From the NCBI RefSeq assembly GCF_947387555.1, contig NZ_CANDNZ010000006.1, positions 91,482 through 155,481 of the forward strand: a stretch of DNA of 64,000 nt, written 5' to 3'. How positions within the stretch are numbered: the stretch's first letter is position 1; every line of letters begins with the position of its first letter. The notes beneath the pieces were generated by a model. That model saw nothing but the letters and a program-made list of their open reading frames with translations, did no database searches and was not told the origin of the DNA. The position numbers and the translations under genes are program-made. Below, in pieces: positions 35-21,485 of this stretch. The stretch is from Thalassomonas sp. RHCl1 (GTDB taxonomy: Bacteria; Pseudomonadota; Gammaproteobacteria; Enterobacterales; Alteromonadaceae).

Positions 35-1291
35 TTGCCGCAATTAGAGTTGGGCAGAGCCTTGTTCTTTCATGATGCTTACTTGGCTCGAACTGCTTTG
101 GAACCCGATGCGCTGGGTATTGAGTTTGATATTGTTTCTGATGATATATCTGATACAACGACAGTAAATGTATTGCAATCGTCAGGTTACACCCAAAAAT
201 CGTTTGATAATTATGCTGCCAGGAGGGTGTTAAGCTGGATATTGATTGATCCTGATGCACGTAGATCTTATGAATCCATAGGTCGTTATCAAAAGCTGTA
301 TGGAAAAGAAATGAACGGTTACCGGCATTGGGACTTTCAATTTGAACCGCCCCAATTGTCTAATGCTAAATTTGTGCTCAGGGGAAAATTTGATAGGGAA
401 AGTAATAGTGTGTTCGTCTATGAGATTACTACCATTTCTAATATCACCCATAAGGTACCCAGAAAAGTTGAGTTTTATAGCCCTAAATTTAGGGAATATG
501 TTCGTGGGGAAGGTTCTGGCGGTAGTGGCCCTATAAATGAGCGGCCCGAAGAACATAATGTCCAGGATGGTGAAGATGCCAACTCAAATACTGACCACAC
601 ACAATTGTATGCGCCAGTGGTGGGTGTTGAGTTTGATAATCCCTTTGCTACAACCAAGATCTACAAGAAGAAACAAAAAGGCTCAAGTGGCCGTAAAGAT
701 GATGAAGCAAATGAAGCAGGCAAGGACGTAAGTACAGAAGAGGGAGATACTGGCGGTAATCGTCCGCAAGCTGATTGGGATATTGCCGAAGATAACTCGG
801 ATGACGCGCACCTGTATGCAAATAAATTTAGCTGCTTTCAACGCATGTTAGAATTACTTGAATCGGAGTGTGGTTGTAAAATTACCTCCAATCAAATTAA
901 AAAGTTACCAAAAGTAGGACGATCTGGCAGACATATCCTAAAAACAGACGGTTCTCCCCGCTGTTTGTCTGTTGTAACAGTTATTTGTAACGATAGACAG
1001 TATCATATGCTTGAAGTTGATACCTCTGATGACAGCAAATCATTGTCTACTAAATTGTTAGTTGTAAATAAGCCGGCTAAATGGAGTGAACAGCTAATTG
1101 AATTAGAGCAAAAATTGATGAAAAGCTCTCTCAGCTGGCCTACTGAATTTTTAAATCTCATTTGTGGTGATAAGGGACATAAGAGCATTTCACACCCCCA
1201 AACTCCATCTGAAAACAAAGGATTACTGGATCCTGACTCTGTCAATAAGTGGGCGCAAAGGGTTAAAAGTTGGATGTTGGGAGCACAGTAA
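35..1291 (+). CDS. Hypothetical protein, 418 aa as drawn, with an acidic low-complexity middle (GSGGSGP..., D/E-rich). It may be 5'-partial because the frame stays open to the window edge.
   Basis: Long ORF in the AT-rich island. Start as drawn is TTG at 35 and no in-frame stop lies upstream to position 2, so the true start may be outside the window. I recognise no catalytic motif. Confidence 0.45.
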   Translation: MPQLELGRALFFHDAYLARTALEPDALGIEFDIVSDDISDTTTVNVLQSSGYTQKSFDNYAARRVLSWILIDPDARRSYESIGRYQKLYGKEMNGYRHWDFQFEPPQLSNAKFVLRGKFDRESNSVFVYEITTISNITHKVPRKVEFYSPKFREYVRGEGSGGSGPINERPEEHNVQDGEDANSNTDHTQLYAPVVGVEFDNPFATTKIYKKKQKGSSGRKDDEANEAGKDVSTEEGDTGGNRPQADWDIAEDNSDDAHLYANKFSCFQRMLELLESECGCKITSNQIKKLPKVGRSGRHILKTDGSPRCLSVVTVICNDRQYHMLEVDTSDDSKSLSTKLLVVNKPAKWSEQLIELEQKLMKSSLSWPTEFLNLICGDKGHKSISHPQTPSENKGLLDPDSVNKWAQRVKSWMLGAQ

Positions 1292-1395: not shown

Positions 1396-1851
1396 TTGCA
1401 TGTAGAATTACCCGCTAAACTCGGTGCGTTAATTTATGGAATATGGTTGTTTATGGAATTTTTAGACGCGATTTTTGTGCTAGCTTTTGGCACTGAAGGG
1501 GAATATAAGGGTAAACCTGAGTACGCAATTCTAGTTTTTTCAATAACATCCTCATTTTTCGGTACGCTAGTTGTCATCCTGGACGCTTTGGTCGTTAAAA
1601 CTTTAAATAAAAATAGTTTCTTGAAATTATCCTATCCTGGCTGGAAGGGGCTTTTAGTTTTTCTTTTATGGGGGGTTGGTGCTGGTATTGGGGGATTTTT
1701 AGGCGCAGCTATTGGTATTTTCGAGATTAATAGAATAGCTTGTGTTGTGGTTGGAACATCATGGCCATTGGTGCTTCCGCGCTTATTATCAACAGCAAAT
1801 AGTGAGTTATCCACTGAAAAAATAGATTTAGGAGTAAATACAAATGGGTAA
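1396..1851 (+). CDS. Small integral membrane protein with about 4 predicted TM helices
   Basis: The translation is dominated by hydrophobic stretches (LGALIYGIWLFMEFLDAIFVLAF..., LLVFLLWGVGAGIGGFLGAAIGIF). It overlaps the next ORF by 8 nt, so the two are likely co-transcribed. Confidence 0.45.
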   Translation: MHVELPAKLGALIYGIWLFMEFLDAIFVLAFGTEGEYKGKPEYAILVFSITSSFFGTLVVILDALVVKTLNKNSFLKLSYPGWKGLLVFLLWGVGAGIGGFLGAAIGIFEINRIACVVVGTSWPLVLPRLLSTANSELSTEKIDLGVNTNG

Positions 1852-2278
1852 TTTAAACTTTTTACTTGGTCGCTCCGATTTTAAAGCTGCGTCAGACATT
1901 ATTGAATCTGTGAGTACATTTCCTCAATTCAATGAGAGAAATGAAAATTTGGCTTTGGCCAGTTCTTTGCTTGTATTTAAAAGTCAATCGCAACAGTGTT
2001 GGTTAATTTTTACTTCTCAAAGAATATATTTTGTTGTGGATGATAATGAAGTCTCTGAAACTAAGACTTTATGGGCCAGAGATCGTGAAAAAATTGTGAA
2101 AAATGGTCGTATAGATCTTGATATGAAGATAATTTCTCAATCAAAAGAAAGTAGTAAATTGTTATTTGGTAAAATGAACAAAGGTTTTTTATTTACTAAC
2201 TCACTATTTAAAGATCAGACAATCACGGGTCTTATATTGAAATTAGTTTCAAACCATTTTTTATCTGTAGAAAATTAA
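1844..2278 (+). CDS. Hypothetical soluble protein, 144 aa
   Basis: ORF overlapping the upstream membrane-protein ORF by 8 nt, same strand, 132 bp upstream of the methyltransferase gene. Confidence 0.4.
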   Translation: MGNLNFLLGRSDFKAASDIIESVSTFPQFNERNENLALASSLLVFKSQSQQCWLIFTSQRIYFVVDDNEVSETKTLWARDREKIVKNGRIDLDMKIISQSKESSKLLFGKMNKGFLFTNSLFKDQTITGLILKLVSNHFLSVEN

Positions 2279-2409
2279 TCTTATTTATAAGTTAATGTTA
2301 TCGATACAAGTATTTTTAGGCTTATTGTTTATCGATAACAGAAAGAACTTGAGTTTACTACTATTCATCGATATAAGTTTGTTGTATATATTTAATTTAA
2401 AATGATTTT

Positions 2410-4047
2410 ATGAGTCCTCATTGCGCAATAAAAAAACGGGAGCTTGGTGCATATTATACTCCTCCTGAGTTAACAAAGGTTCTTGTTGATTGGGCTATAC
2501 GCTCATCAAGAGAAACTGTTCTCGAACCTAGCTTCGGTGGTTGCGGTTTTTTAGAAAGTTGTAAAAGCAGGTTGGAGAAATTAGGGACCAAAAGGCCTTT
2601 CACTAAATTATTTGGAGTAGATATCGATGATAAAGCTTTCGATTATTTACATGATATATTTGGACCTATCGTTGTAACTAAACGATTTATAAAAAAAGAT
2701 TTTATTGGTGTTAATGGTAAAGAATTTTCAGTCAAAAAATTTGATGTACTTTTAGGGAATCCTCCATATGTATCACTTCATAATATGACTCCTGAACAGC
2801 GAGAAAGGTGTTTTAAAGTACTTCATTCTTCACCTTTCGCTGATAAAACTATTGGGCGTAATGCAAGTCTTTGGGGGTTTTTCTTGCTTCATAGCTTGAG
2901 CTTTATTCGAGATAATGGACGGATGATATGGGTTTTACCAAGTAGTCTCTTACATACACATTATGCTAAAGCTTTAATTGAAATATATAAGAAGCATTTT
3001 TCTAATATTAAGCTAATTAAGCTAAATCAACGTTTTTTCAAAACTGAAGGTACCGAAGAAGTTTCTGTAATACTAGCCGCGGAAGGCTTTTCTCAAGAAA
3101 TAATTGATCATAACTTAACAGGCCTTTACGTCGCTAAAAGTGTTAATGAATTGAGTGTTATTCTTAACAATAAAGAAATTTTAGAAAAAGACCAGATAGC
3201 TAATCATAAATTAAATTTAGTTAATGAAGATGTTTTAGCGACGTCTGAGTTATTAAAACAAAATTCTGTTAATTTAGGTGATATTAGTAAAATTGTTATT
3301 GGTATGGTGACTGGTGCGAATGACAAGTTTGTTATTAAACCTTCAACATCAAGCAATCTTGGTTTATCTGCTCAAGATATAAGGCCCGTTATTTCTAAAT
3401 TTAAACATCTTTCAGGGATTATTCATGATAAAAGGAGTCATGAAAAACTCATCTCTGAGGATGAAAGATGTCTTTTGGTGTGTCCTTCTGATATACAAGA
3501 AAAACATACATCTGTTCGAAATTATCTAGCTACAATTGACCGGGTAAATAGAAAAACTAACAGAACATTCCCTAAACGAAAATTTTGGTTTTACCCTGAT
3601 GATGAGCAGATACCAGATGCGTTTCTTTCCTATATGATTGATTCAGGTCCTCGTTTAGTTATTAATTCAGCGAAAATAAACTGCACTAATACAATACATC
3701 GTGTGTTTTTTAATGGTGGTATTAGCTTTAGAAAAAAGAAAGCATTAGCTATTTCAATGTTATCAAGTTACACACGTTTTTCTGCTGAAATAGTCGGCCG
3801 TTCATATGGTTCGGGGGTTTTAAAGTTAGAGCCTTCAGCAGCAAAACAGTTAAGCATAATATACAACAATGAGCTATTAGAGCCTTTGTTATCTATTTCA
3901 AAAGAAGTTAATGATTTACTTTCTCGGGGCCTGATTACAAATGCAACGACTATCGTTGATGAATTATTAACAGAGCACTTTGCTATTGATTTTAAAAAGT
4001 TTAGTGATGCAGTTATTGTTTTAAGAAAAGATAGATATGAAAGTTAA
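2410..4047 (+). CDS. N6-adenine-specific DNA methyltransferase, gamma class (TaqI/Eco57I-like)
   Basis: Motif X GAYYTPPELTKVLVDW near the N-terminus. Motif I (AdoMet-binding) LEPSFGGCGFLE. Motif IV LLGNPPYVS (NPPY = amino-methyltransferase catalytic motif). The order X-I-IV defines the gamma class. ATG at 2410. Confidence 0.85.
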   Translation: MSPHCAIKKRELGAYYTPPELTKVLVDWAIRSSRETVLEPSFGGCGFLESCKSRLEKLGTKRPFTKLFGVDIDDKAFDYLHDIFGPIVVTKRFIKKDFIGVNGKEFSVKKFDVLLGNPPYVSLHNMTPEQRERCFKVLHSSPFADKTIGRNASLWGFFLLHSLSFIRDNGRMIWVLPSSLLHTHYAKALIEIYKKHFSNIKLIKLNQRFFKTEGTEEVSVILAAEGFSQEIIDHNLTGLYVAKSVNELSVILNNKEILEKDQIANHKLNLVNEDVLATSELLKQNSVNLGDISKIVIGMVTGANDKFVIKPSTSSNLGLSAQDIRPVISKFKHLSGIIHDKRSHEKLISEDERCLLVCPSDIQEKHTSVRNYLATIDRVNRKTNRTFPKRKFWFYPDDEQIPDAFLSYMIDSGPRLVINSAKINCTNTIHRVFFNGGISFRKKKALAISMLSSYTRFSAEIVGRSYGSGVLKLEPSAAKQLSIIYNNELLEPLLSISKEVNDLLSRGLITNATTIVDELLTEHFAIDFKKFSDAVIVLRKDRYES

Positions 4048-4081: not shown

Positions 4082-6463
4082 ATGCTGGATAAGATAATAA
4101 AGGAAAAACTTAATTTTTCAGTCGATGGGCGTTTGATCTCAGAATTAGGTGAAAAGTTAGTTACAAAAAATTACCTGGCTTTAGGTGAATTAATTAAAAA
4201 TTCATATGACGCAGACTCGGAAAATGTAGAAATTAAATTTAACAATGTTCGAGAAGGGAACGGTACAATTGTTGTAAAAGATCTTGGTACGGGGATGTTG
4301 TGGGAAGAAGTCCGAGATTGTTGGATGAGGGTATCAACATCTAATAAAGAAACAAGTCCCGTATCTTTGATATATGGTAGAAAAAAAAGCGGCAGCAAAG
4401 GTATTGGTCGGTTCGCTTGTCAAAAATTAGCCGCGGCGGTGAATCTTAAAACCGTTGCTATTACAGATGATCCGAATATTGCGCAAGTCACTACTCTTGA
4501 TATTGAGTGGGAGGATTTTAAATTAGGTAAAGATTTAATTGAGATTAAATGTAAATCGGAATACTACTTTACCGAGAAGTCAAATGTAACAATAGGCACA
4601 ACGATAACTCTTATCAATTTAAAGCAAAAATGGAACCAAATTAGTTACAACAGTTTGCAAAGACAATTGGCATCTCTTTCAATCTCATCGCCTGTTCGAC
4701 GAGAAGACTTTGAAGAAGATCCTGGTTTTGAAATTTTAGTAAGTGCAGATGAATTTGAAAGTGGTAACTATAAACTGTCGGAAAAAGTTCTAGATGCTAG
4801 TTGGGGGCGCGTCAAAGGTAGTGTCGCTGAAGATGGTACTGTAAAATTATTTTTTGATGGAAAGCTAATAGGAAAGAAAGAACATACTTTACATGAACAA
4901 TTTCCTATTTTAAAACATGCTGAATTTGATGTAAGTTGCCTACCGCATGTGAAAGCATATCAGAGAAACCCTCAATTAATGAATTCTAAGCAAATGAAAA
5001 TAATTGAGGACACACACCCCGGTATAAAAGTATATAGTGAAGGTTTTAGAGTTTACCCGTATGGGCAGGAAGGGGATGATTGGTTAGGGTTAGACCGCGA
5101 TGTAGGTCGTCGTAAAGCCAAAATAGACAATAATGAATTAGGGAAAATAGCATCAAGTTATGGGTTAGATAAAAGTAGGGTTATTCTTGATTTATTTAGG
5201 AATGCTAACATTGTTGGAGCTGTATACATAGATACTAACATCAACCCTGCCTTTGAAATTAAACTCAATAGGGAAGGTTTCGTTGAAAATGAAGCTTCTT
5301 TGATGCTGTCTAAACTTTTGCGTTATATTGTTGAATGGATGACGGTCCAATATTCATATTTTAAAGTGCTTTTTAGTGAGCATGAATTAGAGCAGCTAAG
5401 AAAAGATTTTGATGACAAATTGGGTAGTAACAATTCGGAGGTTGCTGAAAATAAAATCATTTATGATGAAGAACCAGGAGGTGTAATACCAAAACCTCCG
5501 CTTTCTATTGATAATAAAAAAGAGCAATTTGATAAAGCGATGACGCTCTTATTGAATGAAGCAAAATTCAATAGAGAAACTAGTAATAAGTCTTATTTAG
5601 AAGATATTGCACCTGAAAGAGCTAGTGATCAGTCAGTTGCAACAAATAAAGATTCAGAATTACTTGAAGTCGCAAGTAAAATAATAACAACAGAATTTAA
5701 TGCAAATAAAAATGAGTTAACCTTGTTACGCGCCATTGCGTCATCAGGGCCTTTATTTTTTGTTTTTGCACATGAATTTAAAAGTTTAGTTTCAAATCTG
5801 GATACAGATGCAGGGAATATAGAGCAATGGATCTCTAAAAATAGTAAAAACGATACTCGTTGGCTTTCAGAAATAGCCAAATCAATGAGACTTACTCGTC
5901 AACGGTTCTTGTCACTAGAAAATTTAATTGGTGTGTTTGCATCAACGCATAAAATCAAAACTAAGAGAATCAAAGTTGCGCAAGCGATTGAAAAGGTGTG
6001 TGCTGGATTTGAATTTGTTACAAGCAGCAGTAATATTAAAATTGATACTAAAGGTATCGATGCATTATTAAAAACTCAAGAAATTTCAGATGCTGCGTTT
6101 TATTCAATAGTGGTTAATCTTGTATCAAATGCGATAAAAGTTGTTTTAGCGAAAGGGACACGAGAGATTAGAATTACAGCTTTTCGAAAAAATAATCTTG
6201 TTATGAGGGTTGAGGACAAGGGGATAGGGCTACCTGAAGATAAATGGGATGATGTGTTTTTACCACTAGTAACTGATCCAACAGGTGAAATGTATAATGA
6301 GCTATTTGATAAAGTAGGCACGGATGAATTATCAGTTCTTGGACGAGGTACAGGTTTAGGATTGAACATTGTTAAAGGAATGGTACAAGATAATGGAGGA
6401 AGGGTGAAGTTTATAAAGCCTTCTGATGGGTGGAAAACTTGTGTGGAAGTTATACTCCCCTAG
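4082..6463 (+). CDS. Atypical sensor histidine kinase. The N-terminal domain is a GHKL/Bergerat-fold ATPase (MORC/Hsp90/MutL-like). It is followed by an H-box and a C-terminal canonical histidine-kinase HATPase_c.
   Basis: N-terminus: N-box ELIKNSYDA, G1 DLGTGM, G2-like SKGIGRFA. Middle: H-box-like FVFAHEFKSLVSNL. C-terminus: N-box NLVSNAIKV, G1 EDKGIGLPE, G2 GRGTGLGLNIVKGMVQDNGGRV. AGGAAG RBS before ATG at 4082. The stop lies 13 nt before the next gene. Confidence 0.75.
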   Translation: MLDKIIKEKLNFSVDGRLISELGEKLVTKNYLALGELIKNSYDADSENVEIKFNNVREGNGTIVVKDLGTGMLWEEVRDCWMRVSTSNKETSPVSLIYGRKKSGSKGIGRFACQKLAAAVNLKTVAITDDPNIAQVTTLDIEWEDFKLGKDLIEIKCKSEYYFTEKSNVTIGTTITLINLKQKWNQISYNSLQRQLASLSISSPVRREDFEEDPGFEILVSADEFESGNYKLSEKVLDASWGRVKGSVAEDGTVKLFFDGKLIGKKEHTLHEQFPILKHAEFDVSCLPHVKAYQRNPQLMNSKQMKIIEDTHPGIKVYSEGFRVYPYGQEGDDWLGLDRDVGRRKAKIDNNELGKIASSYGLDKSRVILDLFRNANIVGAVYIDTNINPAFEIKLNREGFVENEASLMLSKLLRYIVEWMTVQYSYFKVLFSEHELEQLRKDFDDKLGSNNSEVAENKIIYDEEPGGVIPKPPLSIDNKKEQFDKAMTLLLNEAKFNRETSNKSYLEDIAPERASDQSVATNKDSELLEVASKIITTEFNANKNELTLLRAIASSGPLFFVFAHEFKSLVSNLDTDAGNIEQWISKNSKNDTRWLSEIAKSMRLTRQRFLSLENLIGVFASTHKIKTKRIKVAQAIEKVCAGFEFVTSSSNIKIDTKGIDALLKTQEISDAAFYSIVVNLVSNAIKVVLAKGTREIRITAFRKNNLVMRVEDKGIGLPEDKWDDVFLPLVTDPTGEMYNELFDKVGTDELSVLGRGTGLGLNIVKGMVQDNGGRVKFIKPSDGWKTCVEVILP

Positions 6464-6475
6464 CGTGGAAATAAT

Positions 6476-7528
6476 ATGAATAAGAAATTTAATATTTTGT
6501 TTGTTGACGATGAAGTCAACGGAAATAGAAAAGGTTTAATCGCTAACATTAATTATGATGAGCGTTTTAATGTTACAGAATATCATCCTGTAGACGCAAT
6601 TGAAGATCTTGATAAAGGACTTATTGAAGATAAGTATGCATTAATTATTGTTGACTATAAGTTGAGCCATGAACCAAATAGAAACAATGTATCATGTCAC
6701 TCAAATGGATATTCATTAACTAGCTTGTTTAAAGAAAAACTTCCCAATACCCCTGTGTATTTAATCAGTCAAATTCTAACAGATGATATCTCCATGGGTG
6801 AACATTACGATAAAATGTTTTCTCATAGTTTCCTTACTTCAGAAAAAGGAAGAGATTTATTGGCCTATGACTGTGAAGATCATCAACAACTTTTAAAAGA
6901 AGCTCGAAATTTAAATTCTTTTGAAAAAATATGTGAATTTTTGATGGTACCTAATGAATGTAAAGATGCCTTTAAAGTGGCTTTACCAATTGAGTTTAGA
7001 AAAGGTCTATCAAACAACTTAGATAATAATTCTTCACAAGTCTTAGATAAGGAACGCAGTTTTATAAGGTTTGCTAAATGGATAAATCAAATATTCTTAC
7101 TTAAAAGCGGACCTTTAATTGATGAGTTGGAGGTTGCTGTTTTATTTGGCCTTGATTATGAATATTTTAAAACAAACTTTCGTAAAGAATATGAAAGCGA
7201 TTTAATGGCATGTGAATATAAGGGGATTTTTGCGAAAACGAATGAAAAAAAATGGTGGAGCCAAGCTGTTTTCGATTTTGCGGTTTCTTTAGCTGATGAG
7301 GATTATATTTCATATCCTTGGAAAGTTGTTCCTAAAAAGCTAAATGTTGAAGAAAAATTTTTATCAAAATGTGCTTTATGTCAAGAAAACACCCCTGAGT
7401 GTACGGCATTTGATAGAGATGAAACCGAAGGAAATACGAAATATGCAGCTCATTGGAGCTGCACCGTTGCTGCAGAAGATCAGGTCGATCTAGCTGGGTT
7501 TAATCCTGTTTTATATTTGGATGATTAG
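6476..7528 (+). CDS. Response-regulator receiver (REC) domain protein with a roughly 220-aa C-terminal output domain of unknown function that contains a Cys cluster
   Basis: N-terminus ILFVDDE (acidic pocket) and ALIIVDYKL (putative phospho-acceptor Asp) are typical CheY-like REC motifs. The C-terminus has CALCQENTPEC...HWSC. I recognise no HTH. Confidence 0.7.
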   Translation: MNKKFNILFVDDEVNGNRKGLIANINYDERFNVTEYHPVDAIEDLDKGLIEDKYALIIVDYKLSHEPNRNNVSCHSNGYSLTSLFKEKLPNTPVYLISQILTDDISMGEHYDKMFSHSFLTSEKGRDLLAYDCEDHQQLLKEARNLNSFEKICEFLMVPNECKDAFKVALPIEFRKGLSNNLDNNSSQVLDKERSFIRFAKWINQIFLLKSGPLIDELEVAVLFGLDYEYFKTNFRKEYESDLMACEYKGIFAKTNEKKWWSQAVFDFAVSLADEDYISYPWKVVPKKLNVEEKFLSKCALCQENTPECTAFDRDETEGNTKYAAHWSCTVAAEDQVDLAGFNPVLYLDD

Positions 7529-7536
7529 GAGTTATT

Positions 7537-8280
7537 TTGGCAAAGAAGGATTTTTTTTACGAAGCCTATAAAAAAAATTTATGTAACTTTTTTAAATTTT
7601 TATCAGCGGATACACGTGTTAGTCAAGCTCTTGTAAAAACTCTTAGTGAAATAAAAACTAATCAGCAAGTTCTCCAGGCCGCAACTAAAAGCAAAAAAGT
7701 GAAGGTGGACTTACCAAGCTTTGAAATACCGTTATTAAACTCGGTAAAATGTGGAGTAGATACAGATTCTTTTTTATCTATAGGCGGTAAAATCGAATTT
7801 AATGAGCAAGGTATTGTAAATCAAAGTATATCTGCTTGCCTTATTATAAGGCCCCATGAGGATACAAAAGTTTGTGAAAAGAATGCTACAGGCGTAATGA
7901 AAGCTGGAAATAAGTATATAATAAGGCGTTTTCATTTTGATATAGATTCAAGTCAAACTAGTAAGGATCGGCCAATATCACATGTTCAATATGGTGGAAA
8001 TATTCAAGATGAACAAAAAGGAAGCTCGGAATACCAATTAATCAATTCTATTGATCTGCCTCGAATTCCCTCATTCCCACTAGATGTAGTACAGGTTATC
8101 AACTTTTTAATGGATCAATTCGATACAACTTTGAAACAACAATTCAAATTACCTAGCTGGAGGGGAATAGTTGTGGATAATGATGCAATTTGGAAGAAAT
8201 ATTTTTTTGAAAAAATGATTTCAAAAACAAGTAAGCGTAAGACAATGTATGAATGGGCCTGTGATCCGATTAGCTTTTAA
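7537..8280 (+). CDS. Hypothetical protein, 247 aa, last gene of the methyltransferase / histidine kinase / REC cluster
   Basis: TTG start 6 nt after an AGGAG RBS and 9 nt after the REC gene stop. No recognisable motif. Confidence 0.45.
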   Translation: MAKKDFFYEAYKKNLCNFFKFLSADTRVSQALVKTLSEIKTNQQVLQAATKSKKVKVDLPSFEIPLLNSVKCGVDTDSFLSIGGKIEFNEQGIVNQSISACLIIRPHEDTKVCEKNATGVMKAGNKYIIRRFHFDIDSSQTSKDRPISHVQYGGNIQDEQKGSSEYQLINSIDLPRIPSFPLDVVQVINFLMDQFDTTLKQQFKLPSWRGIVVDNDAIWKKYFFEKMISKTSKRKTMYEWACDPISF

Positions 8281-8527: not shown

Positions 8528-9151
8528 CTATTGAAACCGCTTACACAGCTCTTCCCAGTTTGGTTGCGCTGTTTTTAAATCTGTCGGCTCGAAGCGATCC
8601 CTATATGGTGAGATTGCAGGTTGCATCCAACAGAGTTGTCTATCTGCCTCATGCTTATCTTCCTTTGTCATAAGCTCTCTGCTCTCAAGATATGTGTACA
8701 AGGCACGAAGGTAGAATGAGTAGAGGTCGTTTAAGTAGGGAGTGCATCCAACACTCGTGTTTTCAGCTCCGCACCCTAAGTTAATCAGATAAGCAGATGA
8801 TTCTCTTACGCTCCGCGTGCCCATCGCTATCTGGTTCAGTGAGATGCGACCTAGATTTTTGTTCGCGAGGTCTACAGCCGTTTGCGCCGCGAAGACCGCT
8901 GCGTTAGCTCTAGTTACCGCTGTTTCGGCTTTTCTTCGTTCCACAGTCGATTCTGAGGCTTGATACAGTGCGATAAGAGCAGCAGCGATTGCAACTATCA
9001 GCCCTAAAATCGCTGGCATACCCGTTGCTGTTATAACGCCAAACCATGATTGGTGGTGGCCACAATGGAGGCATATAACCGCGTCCTTCGGAATTGGACC
9101 TACATGGCACCAGCGACAACGCCGGTCGAGAGCGTTCACGTTTTCTTTCAT
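8528..9151 (-). CDS. Zn-ribbon plus single-TM membrane protein (CxxC...CxxC N-terminus)
   Basis: N-terminal RRCRWCHVGPIPKDAVICLHCGH (four Cys / His zinc ribbon), then the hydrophobic helix MPAILGLIVAIAAALIALY. It is convergent with the upstream cluster. Confidence 0.45.
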   Translation of the reverse strand: MKENVNALDRRCRWCHVGPIPKDAVICLHCGHHQSWFGVITATGMPAILGLIVAIAAALIALYQASESTVERRKAETAVTRANAAVFAAQTAVDLANKNLGRISLNQIAMGTRSVRESSAYLINLGCGAENTSVGCTPYLNDLYSFYLRALYTYLESRELMTKEDKHEADRQLCWMQPAISPYRDRFEPTDLKTAQPNWEELCKRFQ

Positions 9152-9388
9152 AGTGTCTATCGAGCTATAAATTTTTTGATATTTGGGATTAGGTAAAACA
9201 ACTCAAATAATTGCAAATTATTAATCTATAGTCTACTTAGCTTTGTTGAATGAATATGGTGGTATCGTTTAAGTTTAATCAAATAATAAATAAAACCTAA
9301 ATTAATATTGAGATTGAGGGAGCATAGTCTTCTATCATTACTTAAACCAATTTGAAAAATAGCCTAAAAACTAGAGAGGTTCCTCACC

Positions 9389-10684
9389 ATGGCTATATCA
9401 AAACTGTTTATTAGAGTTTTATTGTTTTTTATTTTCTGCGGAATAGCACATGCAACCGTGTGCCGTTTGCCTGGCTTAAATGGTTTTAATGAATCACAAA
9501 TTCGCGGTGAAAAATTTATTAGGTCTACGACATCAAATTTAAAAGACGTAAGTCTATACATTGAGTTGACTGAAAATGGGCCATGGTACCACTCAAATTA
9601 CATTACACCAGGATTTGAACACCCTACTAAGATTGGTAGAGAAGATATTTATGATGCACAACGTGCGTACAATAACATTGCCATAACACAGGAAATACTT
9701 GATAAAGATTCAAGTATAATAGGCCGTTTGGAAAAAGCCTATGAAGAAAACTCTACCATTTATGTTGACCAAAGCGTATTAAATTCAGATGGTACTTCTA
9801 AGATTGATTTTGGAAGAGCCAAGAATCTAATCGCGGTTGATGGTAAAACTGGAAAGCAGTTGAGTGAAATAGTAAAGATTGATCGCACTCTAGGCAGGAA
9901 AACATTGCTAACCGGTCGAGCACTTGGGTGTTGTTTTTTTGTTTTTCCTCCTCATTTTTTAAAGACATTAGTTGCTCAATTAAGGTCTAAATTATTTAAT
10001 TCTAAAAATGTTAATATCGTAAGTTTGGTAAAAGATTCTGCTACTGCTAGGGCATTTAAAGAGAGTAAATTTCTGTCTAAAAATGTTAAGCAACCTGACG
10101 GATTAGAAACTAAAGTCGCTCTGAGAAATCAAATCAAGGATAGCCGTGGAAAAACGCTTATTGTAGTTGGGCATGTTGAAGGCAAAAAGTTTGTCACTAG
10201 GGATGAAGCAGGGAACATGGTCTTTGATTATGATGTTGCTGACTTACATACTTTAGCAAAAAAGAACAACGTGCAACTGATCGCGCTTGGATGTGAAACA
10301 GCAAAAAATGTTGATTTGGCTACAACTGGTAGTGGTGTAGTGAAAAAATTTAACACTGTAGATGCTGTATCTAATTTAGAGGCAGCTTTTTCATCTTCGA
10401 AAAACTATGCAGAGTTTTTCGAAAACCTTACTAGTCCTGATCTAATGTTTGTTGCTGGTGAAACGTTTTTATCAAAGTCTCCAGAAGCTATTGCCAAAGT
10501 TTCCATTTTTTCTAGAATTAAAGGTTCTGTAAGTAAAAGAATACAAGTGGGGGCTGCTTATCTTCTTGGGAGGGGGAGCAAAATAAATTTCTCGAAGCCG
10601 ACTAAAATGGTAGCAGGACAAGAGCTAACCGAAAGTGAACGTCTCAAAATAATATTGGAAAAACTTACTGGTGAGACAAGGTAA
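9389..10684 (+). CDS. Secreted protein with a signal peptide and a possible CHAT/caspase-like His-Cys dyad
   Basis: Signal peptide MAISKLFIRVLLFFIFCGIAHA. LIVVGHVEG, and about 45 aa later LIALGCETAK, resembles the CHAT-domain H...LSACET catalytic dyad arrangement. Confidence 0.45.
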   Translation: MAISKLFIRVLLFFIFCGIAHATVCRLPGLNGFNESQIRGEKFIRSTTSNLKDVSLYIELTENGPWYHSNYITPGFEHPTKIGREDIYDAQRAYNNIAITQEILDKDSSIIGRLEKAYEENSTIYVDQSVLNSDGTSKIDFGRAKNLIAVDGKTGKQLSEIVKIDRTLGRKTLLTGRALGCCFFVFPPHFLKTLVAQLRSKLFNSKNVNIVSLVKDSATARAFKESKFLSKNVKQPDGLETKVALRNQIKDSRGKTLIVVGHVEGKKFVTRDEAGNMVFDYDVADLHTLAKKNNVQLIALGCETAKNVDLATTGSGVVKKFNTVDAVSNLEAAFSSSKNYAEFFENLTSPDLMFVAGETFLSKSPEAIAKVSIFSRIKGSVSKRIQVGAAYLLGRGSKINFSKPTKMVAGQELTESERLKIILEKLTGETR

Positions 10685-10687
10685 TTA

Positions 10688-11311
10688 ATGAAAAATTCTC
10701 CTAGTATACTGACCCCTATAAATGAAGCTGTTAATTTTTTAGAACTCATACAACCAGAACATCTTAGCAAGTTCCGAGAAAGCTACCCGGAACTATCTGA
10801 GGAGTTGAAGCCTGGAATAATTGCCGGTTCAGAGGATTATTCTTCTGAGTTTATTAAGGCTAAGGCAAATATTATGCTACATACCCTGGAGAGAGCTATC
10901 AATGCAGTGAAGATAGGTTCTCGCAAGGCTGCACAAAGGATAACTTGGGTTAATCGTATTCGTACTGGGAGCGAAATATTAGTGCTTGTGGGAAGTTCTT
11001 CAGTTCTGGGAACTATTAACCTTGCAAATGAAACACCACACATTTTGGCTGCTGCTATAACATTAATCGCAAGCTGCGGAAGCCTGCTTGCGAAACATAC
11101 ATCAAGAATAACTTCTCCAAAATTAGGTAATATTAATGTCGCATATACTACGCTATCGACTTTAGTCTTTGAAACGAGTGAATTAATAAAGGAATTAAAA
11201 CTTGCTTTGCGCTTTTCACTTCCATTAGAAGATATTTCTGATCTAATATCTCGAGGTAACCAATTGATGGCCCGGGTAAATAAGTGGGACTCTCAAGTAT
11301 TGAAGATCTAG
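10688..11311 (+). CDS. Hypothetical protein, 207 aa (helical)
   Basis: ORF starting 4 nt after the previous stop, so probably translationally coupled to the secreted protein. Confidence 0.4.
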   Translation: MKNSPSILTPINEAVNFLELIQPEHLSKFRESYPELSEELKPGIIAGSEDYSSEFIKAKANIMLHTLERAINAVKIGSRKAAQRITWVNRIRTGSEILVLVGSSSVLGTINLANETPHILAAAITLIASCGSLLAKHTSRITSPKLGNINVAYTTLSTLVFETSELIKELKLALRFSLPLEDISDLISRGNQLMARVNKWDSQVLKI

Positions 11312-11524
11312 TTATTTAGTGTTTCATTGATATTGTGAGTTGTGTAAAGAACTTTATTGTTTAAATTTTTAGGTTGGAATTGTATCTTGGCTTTATAGTA
11401 AAGCTCTTTATTTTTTAAAGCTCTGAATTTTATAGTCACTTAATAGGTGTTATAGAGGAATTGAGTAAAGGACTTTATTGTTCTCCTACATTACTTGTGG
11501 GTGAGTAATAAAGTATCATACTGA

Positions 11525-11571
11525 AAACGCCCTGCTTTACTCAAAATATGAGTAAAGCAGGGCGTTTTTTA
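11525..11571 (+). terminator. Rho-independent terminator
   Basis: Stem AAACGCCCTGCTTTACTCA, a 6-nt loop, then TGAGTAAAGCAGGGCGTTT followed by a T-run. Confidence 0.6.
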
Positions 11572-11611
11572 TGGCATCGAAAAAAGTCAGTTTACTATTG
11601 TGTGATTATAG

Positions 11612-12805
11612 ATGTTTCTCCGTCTGTCTTTGGCTATAGTTAAACGCTCAACGTTAGTTTTAAAAGGATTTAAAATGACCAGCCCTTCTGTTCAAGAAAA
11701 AGCTATAGAGATTTGCTTTCCGGAAAACAATGCCTTTGCATTGCCGTGCGATCCTAATAACCCTGACGAAATTGCCTGCTTTCGAAAAGATAATCCACAT
11801 ATTAAAAGCACTGTTATTCCTCCAGGTACACCGTATATTCTTCGAAGGGAGTTCGGTGAAAATCCCCAGCCCTGGCAGGAGTTGAGGCCTGATCTCTCTG
11901 ATACCTTTACCCGGCTGAATAATCTGGATGCCGAAACCAGACGTAATATTGCCAATATGAACAAGTCCTTTGGCAGTGAATTATTGGTTGCCTTGTCTGA
12001 ATTCCATCGTGTTGAAATTGCTCCTTTGGTGTTAAGAACTAAAGAATACGCAAAGGATAAGGTATGGAAAACAGTGAATAAGGAGTCTGGCGGTTTGGTT
12101 GGAGCCGGTGTAGGGGCATTGGATAATCGTTTAACCAACTTTAATAAGGCGGTTCTGGAGAGTCAGCGTGCACTGGAAGAAGTACGTAAAGGCTATCAGG
12201 CTAAAATCCCCAAGCTGGAGCTATATAAATTAGAGCAGACCGCTAGAGAGTTGTTGCGTGAAATGAAATATAACTTTCAGGCTGAGCTGACTAAATATAT
12301 GGGCAATGCCAGGGCAAGTGCCAGAGGTACTGTATGGAGCAATCCGGATCGTGCCATAGCTATTGCCAAGAGCGGTCGAACAGCTACTCCTATTCAATTA
12401 TCAAACGCTAAAGAAATGCAAAGGGTTAAGGAATTTGGCATGGTGGGGAAGTTGGCCGGTCCAGGGCTGTTGATACTTGATATTGGAGTTAGAGTTGGCA
12501 ATGTGCATGTAGATCAGATGTCGGGACTAGATTGGCAAAGACGGGCTGTTGTTGAGACTACGGGATTAGGAACTGCCGGCTTTTTGGGAACTGCAGGTGC
12601 ATATGCCGGTGGTGCTGCAGGTACCGCAGCGATTAGTGCTCTTAATGTTGCTTTATTGGCAACACCTGTGGGATGGTGTGTAGTTATCGGTTCGGGCCTG
12701 GCTTTGGGGTATTTGGCTGCTAAAGGAGGTGATACGGCTGGCCAGTGGCTCGCCGGGTTGTTTTATGATGCCAGTGCAAGTATCAAATGGAACCGCTTGT
12801 TTTAA
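11612..12805 (+). CDS. Toxin-like protein with a C-terminal Gly/Ala-rich glycine-zipper membrane domain (putative pore-forming or polymorphic toxin)
   Basis: C-terminus TTGLGTAGFLGTAGAYAGGAAGTAAISALNVALLATPVGWCVVIGSGLALGYLAAKGG has repeated GxxxG/A motifs. A small 2-TM protein gene follows 14 nt later. The gene sits in a duplicated cassette. Confidence 0.55.
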   Translation: MFLRLSLAIVKRSTLVLKGFKMTSPSVQEKAIEICFPENNAFALPCDPNNPDEIACFRKDNPHIKSTVIPPGTPYILRREFGENPQPWQELRPDLSDTFTRLNNLDAETRRNIANMNKSFGSELLVALSEFHRVEIAPLVLRTKEYAKDKVWKTVNKESGGLVGAGVGALDNRLTNFNKAVLESQRALEEVRKGYQAKIPKLELYKLEQTARELLREMKYNFQAELTKYMGNARASARGTVWSNPDRAIAIAKSGRTATPIQLSNAKEMQRVKEFGMVGKLAGPGLLILDIGVRVGNVHVDQMSGLDWQRRAVVETTGLGTAGFLGTAGAYAGGAAGTAAISALNVALLATPVGWCVVIGSGLALGYLAAKGGDTAGQWLAGLFYDASASIKWNRLF

Positions 12806-12819
12806 TTTGAGGCTTTAGC

Positions 12820-13170
12820 ATGATTGAGATTACTACAGAGCTATTGTTTGCCATCATTTTTGCACTATCAATTTTTGTGGCGGGGATTGCTACTTTTTGT
12901 TTTATCCGGATTTCCGGTAAGCATATCGAACGGGAAATGAAGAAGGAAGGAAAGGTACCGCCGGGGTGGGATTCAACTATGGGATTCAGATATGGGCTTT
13001 ATGCCATAACTATTGTTCGTAACTCCATAGGGCCCATGTCATTTGTTGATGATGAAGCTGTGTTGCGCCATGCCCGTAAAAAAGACAGATTTTTAGCGTT
13101 GTTTTTGGTGATTTCTACGATTGTGTTGATGGTTGTAGGTTGCCTGGTTTATTTTTTATATGCGTCCTAG
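12820..13170 (+). CDS. Small 2-TM membrane protein, putative cognate immunity protein
   Basis: 116 aa with hydrophobic N- and C-terminal helices. It lies immediately downstream of the toxin-like gene. An intact paralogue (about 70% identical by eye) sits at 13957-14310. Confidence 0.5.
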   Translation: MIEITTELLFAIIFALSIFVAGIATFCFIRISGKHIEREMKKEGKVPPGWDSTMGFRYGLYAITIVRNSIGPMSFVDDEAVLRHARKKDRFLALFLVISTIVLMVVGCLVYFLYAS

Positions 13171-13383
13171 TTTGGAATTTTTATTCGAATACGAAGACAT
13201 ACATGCCATTTTCAGTATGAAACTTTATTTTTAAAGCCTGGAAAAACTCAACAGAAGAATGGGCCTTGTGAGTAATAAAGTATCATATTAAAAAAGTCAG
13301 TTCACTATTGCGTGATTATAGATGCTTCTCCGCCTGTTTTTGGCTACAGTTAAACGCTCACGTTAATTTTAAAAGGATTTAAA

Positions 13384-13940
13384 ATGACCAGCCCCTCAGT
13401 TCAAGAAAAAGCGATAGATATCTGCTTTCCGGACAATAATGCCAATGCCTTTGCATTACCGTGTGATCACAATAACCCCGATGAGATTGCCTGTTTTCAC
13501 CGAGATAATCCGCATATCAAAAATACCGTTATTCCACCGGGGACGCCTTATATTTTCCGAACGAGGCTGGCGAGAACCCTCGTCCCTGGCAAGAGCTGAG
13601 GCCTGATCTATCCAGTACCTTTACACAGTTGAATAACCTACCTGCGGAAACCAGGCGCAATATTGCAAATATGAATCAGGCCTTTGGCAGCGAGCTGCTT
13701 GTTGCCTTGTCGGAATTTCATCGTGTTGAAATAGCTCCTTTGGTGTTAAAGGCAAAAGAGTACAGCGAGAATAGGATATTAAAAACACTAAATAAGGAAT
13801 CTGGTGGGTTGGTGTATTGTCATAGGTTCGGCAGTAGCCCTGGGATATTTTTCAGCTAAAGCCGGTGATTCGGCGGGACAATTTTTTGCCGGAATATTTT
13901 ATGATGCTAGTGCAAATATTAATTGGAATCGTTTGTTCTA
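13384..13940 (+). pseudogene. Degraded paralogue of the 11612-12805 toxin-like gene, with a frameshift after about codon 57 and a roughly 180-codon internal deletion
   Basis: N-terminus MTSPSVQEKAIDICFP... matches copy 1 and then shifts frame (ENPRPWQELRPDLSSTF in another frame). KESGGLV is fused directly to GWCIVIGSAVALGYFSAKAGDSAGQFFAGIFYDASANINWNRLF*. The roughly 120-bp upstream leader is also duplicated (13269-13383 matches 11574-11690). Confidence 0.7.
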
Positions 13941-13956
13941 ATTTGAGGTTTTATGA

Positions 13957-14310
13957 ATGATTGAAATCACAACTGAGCTAGGGTTTGCCATTTCTTTTGC
14001 TTTATCACTGTTTGCAATGGCTATTGCTACTTTTTGTTTTATCAGAATATCAGGAAAACACATTGAAAGGGAAATGAAGAAAGAGGGGAAGCTACCCCCT
14101 GGGTGGGATTCAACTATGGGGCTTAGGTACGGATTTTATGCAATAACTATTGTACGTAACTCAATAGCACCCATGTCATTTGTTGATGATGATGCAGTGT
14201 TGCGTTTTACTCGAAAAAAAGATCGTTACCTTGCTTATTTCTTTGTCATTACGTCGGCTATATTTTTGCTGATTATTTTTACTGCTTACTTGTTCTTTGA
14301 TTTAGAGTAG
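13957..14310 (+). CDS. Paralogous small 2-TM immunity-like protein, intact (an orphan immunity gene after the degraded toxin)
   Basis: 117 aa, MIEITTEL...FCFIRISGKHIEREMKKEGK.PPGWDSTMG.RYG.YAITIVRNSI.PMSFVDD.AVLR, nearly colinear with the 12820-13170 protein. Confidence 0.55.
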   Translation: MIEITTELGFAISFALSLFAMAIATFCFIRISGKHIEREMKKEGKLPPGWDSTMGLRYGFYAITIVRNSIAPMSFVDDDAVLRFTRKKDRYLAYFFVITSAIFLLIIFTAYLFFDLE

Positions 14311-18943: not shown

Positions 18944-20767
18944 ATGTTTGCCAAAAATAAAGCGATCAGCCCTTTGGGGTTGTCGCGCAGAAGGTTTGTG
19001 CTCGGGGCCGGCAGCGCCCTGCTGCTAACCGCTATCCCCTTTTCGAAAAAAACCTTGGCCGGGGCCGTTAGCCGCGGGCTCACCACCTTGTCCGGCAAAG
19101 TTTTTGACTTAAGCCTGGATTATAAAACCGTCAACTTTACCGGCAGCGAACGCCTGGCCACGGTGATCAACCAGACCTTGCCTGGCCCTGTGCTGCGCTG
19201 GAAGGAGGGGGAAACCGTCACCTTAAGGGTAAAAAATAACCTGGCGGAAACCAGCTCACTGCACTGGCACGGCCTGATCCTGGAGAGTGCGATGGACGGT
19301 GTACCCGGCATCAGCTTTGACGGCATCAAGCCGGGGGAAACCTTTGAATATAAGTTCAAGGTGCAGCAAAGCGGTACTTACTGGTATCACAGCCACTCGG
19401 GCTTCCAGGAGCAAACCGGCATGTACGGCGCTATCGTCATTGACCCACAGGAGCCGGACCCGGTGGCGTATGACAATGAGTATGTGGTGATGCTCACCGA
19501 CTGGACCGATGAAGATCCCACGGATGTTTACGCCAAGCTGAAAAAAATGTCCGGTTATTACAATTTCAGCGAGCGCACCGCTGGCGATTTGCTGGATGAA
19601 ATCAAGAAAAACGGCGTGGTTAATACCTTCAATGCCAGGGCCATGTGGAATAAAGCGCGCATGAGCGACCGGGATCTCTCGGATGTGACCAGCCATACCT
19701 ACACCTATTTAATGAACGGCAATACTCCTGAGCTGGGCTGGCAGGCACTGTTTAATAAAGGTGAAAAGATACGGCTGCGTTTCATTAACGGTGCCGCCAT
19801 GACTATTTTTGATGTCCGGATCCCGGGACTGAAAATGACGGTGGTGGCCAGCGACGGACAAAATATCCAGCCGGTTACCGTGGATGAGTTCCGCATGGGA
19901 GTGGCGGAAACCTATGATGTTATCGTCGAACCGGATAGCGAGCAGGCCTACTGCATCTTTGCCCAGAGCATAGATAGAACCGGTTATGCCGTGGGTAACC
20001 TGACCCCGGATGCTAATGTGATTGCCGAAGTGCCGAAAATGGATACCGCTGCCGTGCTTGGCCATGCGGATATGGGCATGGATATGTCGGCGATGGCGGG
20101 TATGGATCATTCGGCTATGCCTGGTATGAAACAGCCGGAGATGTCCGGCATGAAAAAATCGGGCATGGATCATAGCGGACACCAGATGAAGGATATGGCA
20201 GCCGGTGCTTTAGGCTTGGCGGGCTTTGGCAGTAACAGCGAAATCAAGCATGTGAAGAGTGAGTTTGGCCCGCATGTGGATATGCGCGCCTCCACCCCGA
20301 AAAGTGGTCTTTATGATCCCGGTATCGGATTGAGGCAACACCAAAAAGAGCTGGGCCGCAAGGTGCTCAATTACGGCGATATTGTCGGCCTGCAGCCGAC
20401 GTCGGATCCGCGCGAACCCGGCCGTGAAATTCAGCTGCACCTGACCGGCAATATGAGCCGTTATATGTGGTCGATGAACGGCATTAAATTCGCCGATGCC
20501 GAGCCGTTGCAGCTTAAATACGGCGAACGGCTGCGTATCACCCTGGTCAACGATACCATGATGGCCCACCCCATGCACTTACACGGCATGTGGAGTGAAC
20601 TGGAAACCGGCGAACCCGGTTATATCCCGAAAAAACATACGGTACTGGTACAGCCGGGATCGAAAATCAGTTACCTGGTGAGTGCAGATGCCATGGGCGG
20701 TTGGGCCTATCACTGTCACCTGCTCTATCACATGTTGGGTATGTTCAGAAAAGTCGTGGTCAGTTAA
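18944..20767 (+). CDS. copA: Copper-resistance multicopper oxidase CopA (PcoA)
   Basis: Tat signal SRRRFVLGAGSALL. Copper-ligand motifs HWHGL, HSHSG and C-terminal HCHLLYHMLGM. Met-rich insert MGMDMSAMAGMDHSAMPGMKQPEMSGMKKSGMDHSGHQMKDM. Confidence 0.9.
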   Translation: MFAKNKAISPLGLSRRRFVLGAGSALLLTAIPFSKKTLAGAVSRGLTTLSGKVFDLSLDYKTVNFTGSERLATVINQTLPGPVLRWKEGETVTLRVKNNLAETSSLHWHGLILESAMDGVPGISFDGIKPGETFEYKFKVQQSGTYWYHSHSGFQEQTGMYGAIVIDPQEPDPVAYDNEYVVMLTDWTDEDPTDVYAKLKKMSGYYNFSERTAGDLLDEIKKNGVVNTFNARAMWNKARMSDRDLSDVTSHTYTYLMNGNTPELGWQALFNKGEKIRLRFINGAAMTIFDVRIPGLKMTVVASDGQNIQPVTVDEFRMGVAETYDVIVEPDSEQAYCIFAQSIDRTGYAVGNLTPDANVIAEVPKMDTAAVLGHADMGMDMSAMAGMDHSAMPGMKQPEMSGMKKSGMDHSGHQMKDMAAGALGLAGFGSNSEIKHVKSEFGPHVDMRASTPKSGLYDPGIGLRQHQKELGRKVLNYGDIVGLQPTSDPREPGREIQLHLTGNMSRYMWSMNGIKFADAEPLQLKYGERLRITLVNDTMMAHPMHLHGMWSELETGEPGYIPKKHTVLVQPGSKISYLVSADAMGGWAYHCHLLYHMLGMFRKVVVS

Positions 20768-20777
20768 GGAGTTTGTG

Positions 20778-21485
20778 ATGAAAAAGCAATTAACACTAGT
20801 GTCTTTGGCTTTAGCCGCTGTGCTGGCCAACAGCCCGGTTTATGCGGCAGGCTCGGATGATCCCTTACTGACTAAGGTGATGCTGGATCAGTTTGAAGGC
20901 GATGTGAATAACGACAACGCCACCAGCTGGGCGGCGCAGGCCTGGGCCGGTTATGATCTGGAAAAGCTCTGGATCAAAACCGACGGCGAGCGGGCAAACG
21001 GTAGCACAGAGTCGGCAGAGCTACAGGCCTTATACAGCAAGGCGGTTGCCCCTTACTGGGATCTGCAGTTTGGTTTCCGGCAAGATTTTAAACCTTCCCC
21101 TTCTGCTGAGTGGGCGGTGATTGGTTTCCAGGGACTGGCGCCGTACTTTTTTGAAATGGATAGCGCGCTCTTTATCGGCAAAGAGGGGAAAACCGCACTC
21201 AGGGTAGAGGCGGAATACGAAATCATGCTGACCCAGCAATGGGTATTAAGCCCGGAAATCGAAGTTAACTTCTACGGTAAAAATGACCGGACAACCGGCA
21301 TAGGCTCAGGCTTATCCGACATCGAAGCGGGTCTGCGCCTAAGGTATGAAGTGGTGCGGGAATTTGCTCCCTATATCGGGGTGAACTGGTCGAAAAGTTT
21401 CGGCAATACCGCAGACTTTGCCCGCGCCGAAGGGGAAAGCACCAGTGAAACCCAGCTGGTGCTGGGGTTCAGGGCCTGGTTTTAG
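20778..21485 (+). CDS. copB: Copper-resistance outer-membrane protein CopB (PcoB), short form
   Basis: ATG at 20778 with AAGGA RBS overlapping the copA stop. Signal peptide MKKQLTLVSLALAAVLANSPVYA. C-terminal LVLGFRAWF is a beta-barrel terminal Phe. The position between copA and copC fits CopB. The six-frame ORF starts earlier, at 20682, but that stretch lies inside copA. Confidence 0.8.
   Translation: MKKQLTLVSLALAAVLANSPVYAAGSDDPLLTKVMLDQFEGDVNNDNATSWAAQAWAGYDLEKLWIKTDGERANGSTESAELQALYSKAVAPYWDLQFGFRQDFKPSPSAEWAVIGFQGLAPYFFEMDSALFIGKEGKTALRVEAEYEIMLTQQWVLSPEIEVNFYGKNDRTTGIGSGLSDIEAGLRLRYEVVREFAPYIGVNWSKSFGNTADFARAEGESTSETQLVLGFRAWF

Follow-up and report, generated by a model that had tools for sequence, protein, structure and literature searches.

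The window analyzed here is a 64,000-nucleotide stretch of the genome of Thalassomonas sp. RHCl1 (contig NZ_CANDNZ010000006.1, positions 91,482 to 155,481 of the forward strand), in which the open reading frame (ORF) at 4082..6463 (+) encodes a protein of 793 residues. Judged from its sequence, this protein was confirmed as a soluble histidine kinase with intact GHL-type ATPase motifs at the place where the sensor domain normally sits. The input of two-component kinases usually comes from PAS, GAF, HAMP, or periplasmic domains. The kinase gene stands in a cassette with the genes of a DNA methyltransferase (methylase), a receiver protein, and a fourth protein, here called protein Y, and these four genes were shown to be a coupled, laterally mobile unit. 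The kinase may well serve as sensor in an anti-phage cassette that is mobile, linked to a methylase, and would signal through a phosphorelay. This cassette would be a distant relative, with different equipment, of the Ambrosia system of Pseudomonas aeruginosa. With a MutL/MORC-type ATPase as its driver, a kinase links phosphotransfer to a DNA-transaction engine, and at least one anti-phage system is known to require kinases of this kind.

Domain architecture of the sensor kinase

The original prediction described the protein as a histidine kinase carrying two Bergerat-fold ATPase modules, and both the ORF and this description were borne out. Pfam assigns HATPase_c_3 to residues 33-157 (E = 9.9e-21) and HATPase_c to residues 673-793 (E = 1.8e-20). 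The predicted layout, all on the plus strand, consists of an N-terminal MutL/MORC/Hsp90-type Bergerat ATPase (residues 12-197, 4115..4672), a conserved middle region whose fold has no known match (residues 198-430, 4673..5371), an acidic linker, a DHp domain with an HEF-type H-box (5717..5956), and a CA domain (6098..6460). To assess conservation, 19 full-length homologs with 34-64% identity were aligned, which came from Gammaproteobacteria, Chloroflexota, Desulfobacteria, Methanoperedens, and Bathyarchaeia. The N-box, G1, and G2-like motifs proposed for the N-terminal module are real, as E36, N40, and D43 (ELIKNSYDA), D67-x-G69-x-G71 (DLGTGM), and K106-G107-x-G109-R110 (GSKGIGRF) are invariant in all 19 homologs. 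The same holds for H564-E565 of the H-box AHEFKSL and for the CA-domain residues N679/N683/K686, D712-x-G-x-G716, and G756-x-G-x-G760, which are unchanged throughout the alignment. The codons of the N-terminal motifs were checked and lie at 4187-4189 (E36), 4199-4201 (N40), and 4280-4294 (D67xGxG), and that of the predicted phospho-acceptor H564 at 5771-5773. Invariant or near-invariant residues are also found in the middle region (R207, DPG213-215, W241, G314, FRxxPYG322-328, DDWL332-335, G379, and R397).

When a profile of the N-terminal half was compared with the PDB, the nearest relatives were MutL (2.2e-10), PMS2, MLH1, MORC2/3, HtpG, TRAP1, and Hsp90, and not histidine kinases. Pfam and the profile search both place the N-terminal region in an ATPase fold of the MORC/MutL/Hsp90 type, and its motifs are not chance matches. 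The matches are confined to the Bergerat fold (profile positions ~18-155), and residues 198-430 matched no solved structure in the profile search. The S5 transducer domain of MORC and MutL is therefore not demonstrated in the kinase, in which it was not detected by sequence. Among NCBIfam models, the N-terminal module best matches the BbrUII/HgiDII restriction-enzyme family (NF050001; residues 12-197, E = 2.3e-20). An assignment of the kinase to these type II restriction enzymes was rejected, as the match reaches 72.7 bits against a cut-off of 550 and covers only positions 3-184 of the 659-position profile, which correspond to the GHKL module. At E ≤ 0.1, PADLOC returned only the REase_II and MzaB models, which reflects generic GHKL similarity.

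A profile of the C-terminal third aligns over both DHp and CA domains with the solved kinases ZraS (2.8e-30), ThkA (8.4e-27), and HK853 (8e-26), and it places the family motif '...sHEik...' on the phospho-histidine motif of all three. The C-terminal histidine-kinase core is thus as predicted, with H564 located ~110 residues ahead of the CA domain, close to the ~120 residues first estimated. The Pfam model HEF_HK (PF19191) was matched weakly, and only by an excised kinase fragment (E = 0.088, 13.7 bits against a cut-off of 24.1). The absence of transmembrane segments and of PAS and GAF domains had likewise been predicted correctly: Pfam found no PAS, GAF, HAMP, or other sensory domain in the kinase, and a hydropathy scan found no transmembrane segment, the single borderline stretch (residues 671-690) corresponding to the N-box helix that is buried in the CA domain. 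Taken with the receiver alignment described below, the conservation data show both nucleotide-binding sites, H564, and D60 of the receiver to be intact and strongly constrained.

The mobile four-gene cassette

In the window, the kinase gene is preceded by a stand-alone Eco57I-type N6-adenine DNA methyltransferase gene (2410..4047, +), whose product matches Pfam N6_Mtase, Eco57I, and M_Eco57I_C as well as PADLOC MTase_II (E = 8.3e-83), and is followed by the genes of the receiver protein (350 residues, 6476..7528, +) and of protein Y (247 residues, 7537..8280, +). The intergenic gaps are short, measuring 34 nucleotides between methylase and kinase, 12 between kinase and receiver, and 8 between receiver and Y. 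Full-length kinase homologs are widespread: 3,527 matches were obtained among the scored candidates, and at least 581 kinase loci were confirmed among species-representative genomes. The family extends over many bacterial phyla as well as haloarchaea, Methanoperedens, Bathyarchaeia, and Nitrososphaerales.

The conservation of the cassette was counted in 89 loci with strict profiles for the receiver and Y. The genes of kinase, receiver, and Y share one direction and one order throughout, with a median gap of -4 nucleotides at both the kinase-receiver and the receiver-Y junction. The kinase is accompanied by the receiver in 72 of the 89 loci and by both receiver and Y in 55. Of the 17 kinase-receiver loci without a Y call, 14 have an ORF of 213-257 residues right after the receiver gene, and 12 of these 14 score as diverged Y, so that Y adjoins ~67 of the 72 kinase-receiver loci once diverged copies are counted. 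An Eco57I-type methylase flanks the core in 65/89 loci, on either side and on either strand.

The most divergent kinases (24-25% identity) retain this layout, with the kinase followed by a protein of ~410 and then one of ~215 residues, but are linked to C-5 cytosine methylases. In these distant loci, the homology of the receiver-like proteins to the window receiver extends past the REC domain (hhalign 94%, 224 columns). Homology to Y could not be demonstrated by hhalign for the fourth ORFs of the loci linked to C-5 methylases; an H-x-x-x-H-x-Q motif occurs at the Y-equivalent relative position in 7 of 8 of them. Examples of the C-5 methylases are found in locus L056 (5214-6929), where the enzyme is fused to an N-terminal Vsr mismatch endonuclease domain, and in locus L073 (5782-6996).

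The cassette of the window is apparently cargo of a Tn7-like element, whose transposition genes lie directly upstream of it. The cassette is taken as such, together with the low-GC block around it (0.32-0.37 over 2-12 kb of the window vs ~0.5), because a TnsE-like gene lies immediately upstream (35..1291, +), whose product carries the C-terminal domain TnsE_C (Pfam, E = 2.5e-43). No tRNA integration site was found in 1-25 kb of the window. Elsewhere, the cassette is found in P4-type integrase islands (Enterobacteriaceae), a provirus (Bathyarchaeia), an island with CI, replicase, and integrase genes (Vibrio harveyi), and a haloarchaeal plasmid beside toxin-antitoxin genes. On the Halomicrobium plasmid pLC1Hm-01 (locus L090), a YgjP-like metallopeptidase gene (5202-5930) lies between the N6 methylase and the kinase, and the receiver gene is followed by an unannotated gap of ~950 bp, a possible place for a Y homolog.

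The receiver protein begins with a REC domain (residues 1-122), in which the putative phospho-acceptor D60 (6653-6655) is invariant in 48 receiver sequences and D11, D12, and K113 are present. Its structure was modeled with confidence (pLDDT 86). The ~228 residues at the C-terminus are helical and contain a helix-turn-helix-like 'A..LG' motif, invariant Y248 and W261, and, among close homologs, a Cys3-His-Cys cluster (C299, C302, C309, H326, and C329). No known family, including the recognized winged helix-turn-helix families, could be assigned to this region, and Response_reg_2 (PF19192) was matched neither by the window receiver nor by any of the 48 receiver homologs. The word-index protein searches for the receiver and Y recovered close homologs only, which limits the alignment depth behind the structure models.

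Protein Y is encoded by the conserved fourth gene and is a probable effector or co-factor. H133, D135, P146, H149 (in H-x-Q-x-GG), P175-R176, and P181-x-D183 are invariant or near-invariant, and these residues look like an active site. The structure model is confident (pLDDT 87, pTM 0.86) and predicts a five-stranded sheet, preceded by three helices at the N-terminus and followed by long helices at the C-terminus. Y matched no sequence family in Pfam, NCBIfam, PADLOC, PHROG, or the PDB, and its fold has no relative among solved structures. The family is small, with 359 representatives in 1.84 billion proteins, and no fusions occur among the best 150 of these 359, where Y is always a stand-alone protein. 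The fourth gene is under-reported in public annotations. On an Enterobacteriaceae metagenome contig (L004, 8983-9729), for instance, an intact Y ORF of 248 residues was missed by the gene caller of the source. The idea that Y is a cryptic HNH nuclease was also considered and rejected, as none of 48 Y homologs has an HNH Pfam match and the profile comparison with the HNH protein AbrD of Ambrosia gives a probability of 0.4%.

Relation to known systems and proposed function

Ambrosia is an anti-phage system of P. aeruginosa that comprises AbrR (XRE), AbrA (an N6-adenine methylase), AbrB (HATPase_c_3 + HATPase_c, 747 residues), AbrC (REC, 209 residues), and AbrD (HNH) (10.1101/2025.09.30.679545). 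Point mutations in every gene, including AbrB N40A, AbrC D60A, and those in the methylase and HNH genes, abolish defense, and the operon is induced upon infection, as observed with reporters in place of abrA or abrD (10.1101/2025.09.30.679545). AbrC was reported to have a winged helix-turn-helix, and the 537 instances of the system were found in Gammaproteobacteria only (10.1101/2025.09.30.679545). In the supplementary AbrB sequence, N40A falls in ...ELVKN40AYDAD..., which is the N-terminal GHL module's N-box, and corresponds to N40 of the window kinase. With AbrB residues 1-399, the only part compared, the window kinase shares 27% identity (BLASTP, E = 1e-28), collinearity over residues 12-402, including the middle region, and the common motif ELxKN40xYDAD. 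The receiver family aligns with AbrC over the REC domain only (hhalign 94.5%, E = 8e-8), and D60 is found in both.

Several differences separate the two cassettes. The window receiver has an extra C-terminal region of ~200 residues that is missing in the shorter AbrC, and the Y family is unrelated to the AbrD HNH protein. The window methylase shows only generic similarity to AbrA (E = 0.001, 22% identity over the catalytic core) and belongs to other Pfam subfamilies (Eco57I/M_Eco57I_C in the window, MmeI_Mtase/N6_Mtase in AbrA). No HTH_XRE-type match to the XRE/HipB-like AbrR was obtained in the ORFs flanking the window cassette, which instead has two small genes, U1 and U2, upstream. The Y-type cassette occurs in many bacterial phyla and in archaea, whereas Ambrosia was reported from Gammaproteobacteria only. 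By its gene content, the window cassette has the sensor-receiver core in common with Ambrosia and would operate in a similar manner, yet it is not Ambrosia in the strict sense, because it contains neither the AbrD-type HNH effector nor the AbrR-type XRE regulator. The validated Ambrosia is a small gammaproteobacterial offshoot of a far larger bacterial-archaeal family, and in most members of that larger family, the fourth gene encodes not an HNH nuclease but an uncharacterized protein without a solved structural relative.

It was also proposed in the original prediction that an ATPase clamp as the input of a kinase would be an unusual signaling logic. This is not new: the architecture has been in print, together with its restriction-modification linkage, since 2021, and experiments on a member followed in 2025. 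In a computational study, Bellieny-Rabelo et al. 2021 described soluble proteins with HATPase_c_3, an HEF-type DHp, and HATPase_c, next to receiver-like genes and linked to restriction-modification methylases, assigned them a paraMORC origin, and proposed the N-terminal ATPase as sensor (PMC8011034). The window cassette resembles these elements in its adjacent receiver-like gene with a conserved Asp, its upstream methylase, and its H-E-F motif (AHEFKS), and the more distant of the loci examined carry C-5 methylases and Vsr, as in that study. It differs from them in that the methylase is of the Eco57I N6-adenine and not of the C-5 type and in that neither the HEF_HK nor the Response_reg_2 model is reached; the conserved fourth gene was not identified in PMC8011034. 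The paraMORC-kinase architecture, the restriction-modification linkage, and a genetically validated relative are therefore already known. New are the Y-type branch across bacteria and archaea, the extra conserved domain of the receiver, and the U1-U2 module in Gammaproteobacteria.

The kinase further resembles the paraMORC GHKL ATPases (Iyer, Abhiman and Aravind 2008, PMC2292703) and VcSduA in its N-terminal MutL/MORC-like GHKL module with intact motifs, its restriction-modification or defense context, and its lateral mobility. In VcSduA (GHKL-Shedu), a paraMORC-type GHKL module regulates a C-terminal output domain, and the mutation E27A abolishes defense (PMC12137116). The output differs, being a histidine-kinase transmitter in the window protein and a nuclease, TIR domain, or helicase partner in paraMORC proteins and VcSduA, and the S5 domain, by which MORC and paraMORC proteins are defined, is not detectable by sequence in the window kinase.

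Like Detocs (DtcA/B/C), the cassette would be an anti-phage phosphorelay in which a kinase acts on a receiver-domain protein. The sensor domain of Detocs is of another kind; the system includes a buffer receiver and, as effector, a PNP-type ATP nucleosidase, and it is not known to include a methylase. Membership in Detocs, Mza, or other PADLOC systems was rejected, given that the kinase matched no models but REase_II and MzaB at E ≤ 0.1, in a PADLOC release not confirmed to include Detocs. MADS was rejected as well: the N-terminus of the methylase weakly matches mad2/MADS2, nothing else in the cassette does, and the 'histidine kinase' of the MADS paper is a flanking marker gene.

On balance, we lean towards the kinase being the sensor of an Ambrosia-related anti-phage phosphorelay. 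During infection, the N-terminal module together with the middle region would bind a cue, most likely DNA that is invading or replicating, or a complex of DNA and protein, and the module would then run the ATP-driven dimerization and conformational cycle typical of GHL ATPases. This change would be relayed through the acidic linker to the DHp and CA domains and lead to autophosphorylation of H564, for which the required residues are in place. The phosphoryl group would next be transferred to D60 of the receiver, a step that the AbrC D60A phenotype supports. Through its helix-turn-helix-like and putative Zn-cluster C-terminal region, the phosphorylated receiver would either induce the operon or recruit Y and license it on DNA. 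Y would be the likely executor because of its invariant His/Asp/His/Arg constellation and because its gene holds the position taken by the HNH nuclease in Ambrosia. The methylase would provide the 'M' half of a restriction-modification-like logic, its mark either protecting self or making the substrate of the effector.

The defense role that had been suggested for the kinase is supported by its genomic context, as the methylase, the mobile elements and defense islands, and the homology to AbrB are what a role against foreign DNA predicts, and the AbrB N40A phenotype fits as well. The likeness of the N-terminal module to the N-terminus of BbrUII/HgiDII and to PADLOC REase_II was also counted in its favor. 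Neither a clamp nor DNA binding by the kinase is supported in this way, and several points weigh against the proposed role. Neither a DNA-binding nor an S5 domain is detectable in the kinase by profile search against solved structures. Y lacks a recognizable nuclease fold or motif and could be a regulator, phosphatase, or adaptor instead of an effector. Cassettes with Y, including that of the window, are known from sequence alone. The extrapolation from Ambrosia spans a long evolutionary distance, because the window cassette has no XRE regulator and its partner proteins score below the published Pfam models. Finally, the mechanism of Ambrosia is itself a working model in a preprint (10.1101/2025.09.30.679545).

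A bolder version of this scheme, which we regard as rather unlikely, is that Y is the founder of a new enzyme fold with an invariant His-x-Asp ... His-x-Gln-x-Gly-Gly ... Pro-Arg site, acting as an effector under phosphorelay control in the paraMORC-kinase defense superfamily's most widespread branch, and that the GHL module of the kinase senses invading DNA directly and in an ATP-dependent manner. If true, this would be the first two-component pathway with a MutL/MORC-type DNA clamp as input and an unprecedented DNA-targeting enzyme as output, distributed from Enterobacteriaceae to Bathyarchaeia and haloarchaea. The cue of the GHL module and the chemistry of Y would also inform how eukaryotic MORC ATPases turn ATP-driven dimerization into a signal.

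The working model of the Ambrosia authors can be carried over to the window as a transcriptional control module, which we hold to be possible, if doubtful. Here, kinase and receiver would merely induce the operon, and the methylase and Y would form a toxic pair in which Y attacks methylase-marked DNA. The induction of the abrA- and abrD-replacing reporters by infection and the winged helix-turn-helix reported for AbrC speak for this model, and so do the helix-turn-helix-like motif of the window receiver and a candidate operator (2296..2372) within the 131 bp that precede the methylase gene. The latter consists of a perfect 11-nucleotide inverted repeat (TGTTATCGATA/TATCGATAACA) at 2296-2306 and 2330-2340 and a third ATCGAT at 2367-2372; three ATCGAT sites thus lie within 73 bp of the methylase promoter gap vs 24 in the 64 kb of the window, and this palindromic triple site could be a putative operator or the target of the methylase itself. 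However, conservation does not back the operator, as there is no equivalent at the orthologous locus L001 from Enterobacteriaceae, nor any support from the Vibrio harveyi locus L008. Scans for promoters and terminators in the window revealed no enrichment over shuffled sequences. The model is further weakened by the position of the kinase and receiver genes, which sit downstream of the methylase in the very operon that they should induce. The C-terminal region of the receiver, moreover, is not a recognized winged helix-turn-helix family and does not exist in AbrC, and Y does not resemble type IV nucleases.

It is quite improbable that the kinase is a sensor of the methylation state, as had been suggested originally alongside foreign DNA. 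In that case, the MutL/MORC-like module would clamp specifically on DNA that lacks the cognate N6-adenine mark, and the kinase would license a nuclease (Y or receiver and Y together), which would destroy unmethylated DNA and spare methylated self DNA. Such a role would agree with the tight linkage of the kinase cassette to methylases, the essential function of the methylase in Ambrosia, the resemblance of the N-terminal module to a type II restriction-enzyme family, and the established action of bacterial MutL in methyl-directed strand discrimination (discussed in PMC2292703). Phage propagated on a host methylated by AbrA remained, however, fully sensitive to Ambrosia (10.1101/2025.09.30.679545), which disfavors simple sensing of the mark. 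Unrelated methylase classes (Eco57I-type N6-adenine, MmeI/N6_Mtase-type N6-adenine, and C-5) are moreover swapped around the conserved N-terminal half of the kinase. Reading of the mark by the kinase is hard to reconcile with such an exchange of methylase class and specificity, and a DNA-recognition domain was not detected in the kinase.

That the kinase belongs to a housekeeping or stress two-component system beside an orphan methylase and senses cellular ATP or the state of the nucleotide pool is very hard to believe. Such sensing was proposed in the 2021 paper; Pectobacterium homologs were first noticed as stress- or host-induced genes, and NTP sensing was speculated (PMC8011034). The four-gene cassette, by contrast, travels as one unit among bacteria and archaea, is carried by transposons, integrase islands, proviruses, and plasmids, and is patchily distributed, and a homolog is genetically required for phage defense in Ambrosia.

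Neighboring genes in the window

Upstream of the methylase, U1 (1396..1851, +) encodes a small membrane protein of 151 residues with at least three hydrophobic segments by hydropathy scan, and U2 (1844..2278, +), which overlaps U1 by 8 nucleotides, encodes a protein of 144 residues without functional assignment. Neither U1 nor U2 matched Pfam, NCBIfam, PADLOC, or PHROG. Homologs of U1 (E = 1e-37 to 1e-40) lie directly upstream of the cassette at four Enterobacteriaceae loci (L001-L004) and at two Vibrio harveyi loci (L008/L009), and homologs of U2 (E = 1e-43 to 1e-44) are found at the same six loci. The pair stands ahead of the methylase in Enterobacteriaceae and directly ahead of the kinase in Vibrio harveyi, where the methylase is located elsewhere. 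U1 and U2 may be a membrane module that accompanies the cassettes of Gammaproteobacteria as an accessory.

Downstream of Y, the remainder of the low-GC island (8528-14310) contains ORFs at 8528-9151 (-), 9389-10684, 10688-11311, and 11612-12805, the last with a Gly/Ala-rich C-terminus, none of which has a family match, as well as paralogous small membrane proteins at 12820-13170 and 13957-14310 with near-identical N-termini. These genes may be further cargo, defense, or toxin genes. A copper-resistance cluster at host-like GC follows at 18944-22882, consisting of a CopA-like multicopper oxidase (18944-20767), CopB (20682-21485), and CopD (21968-22882).

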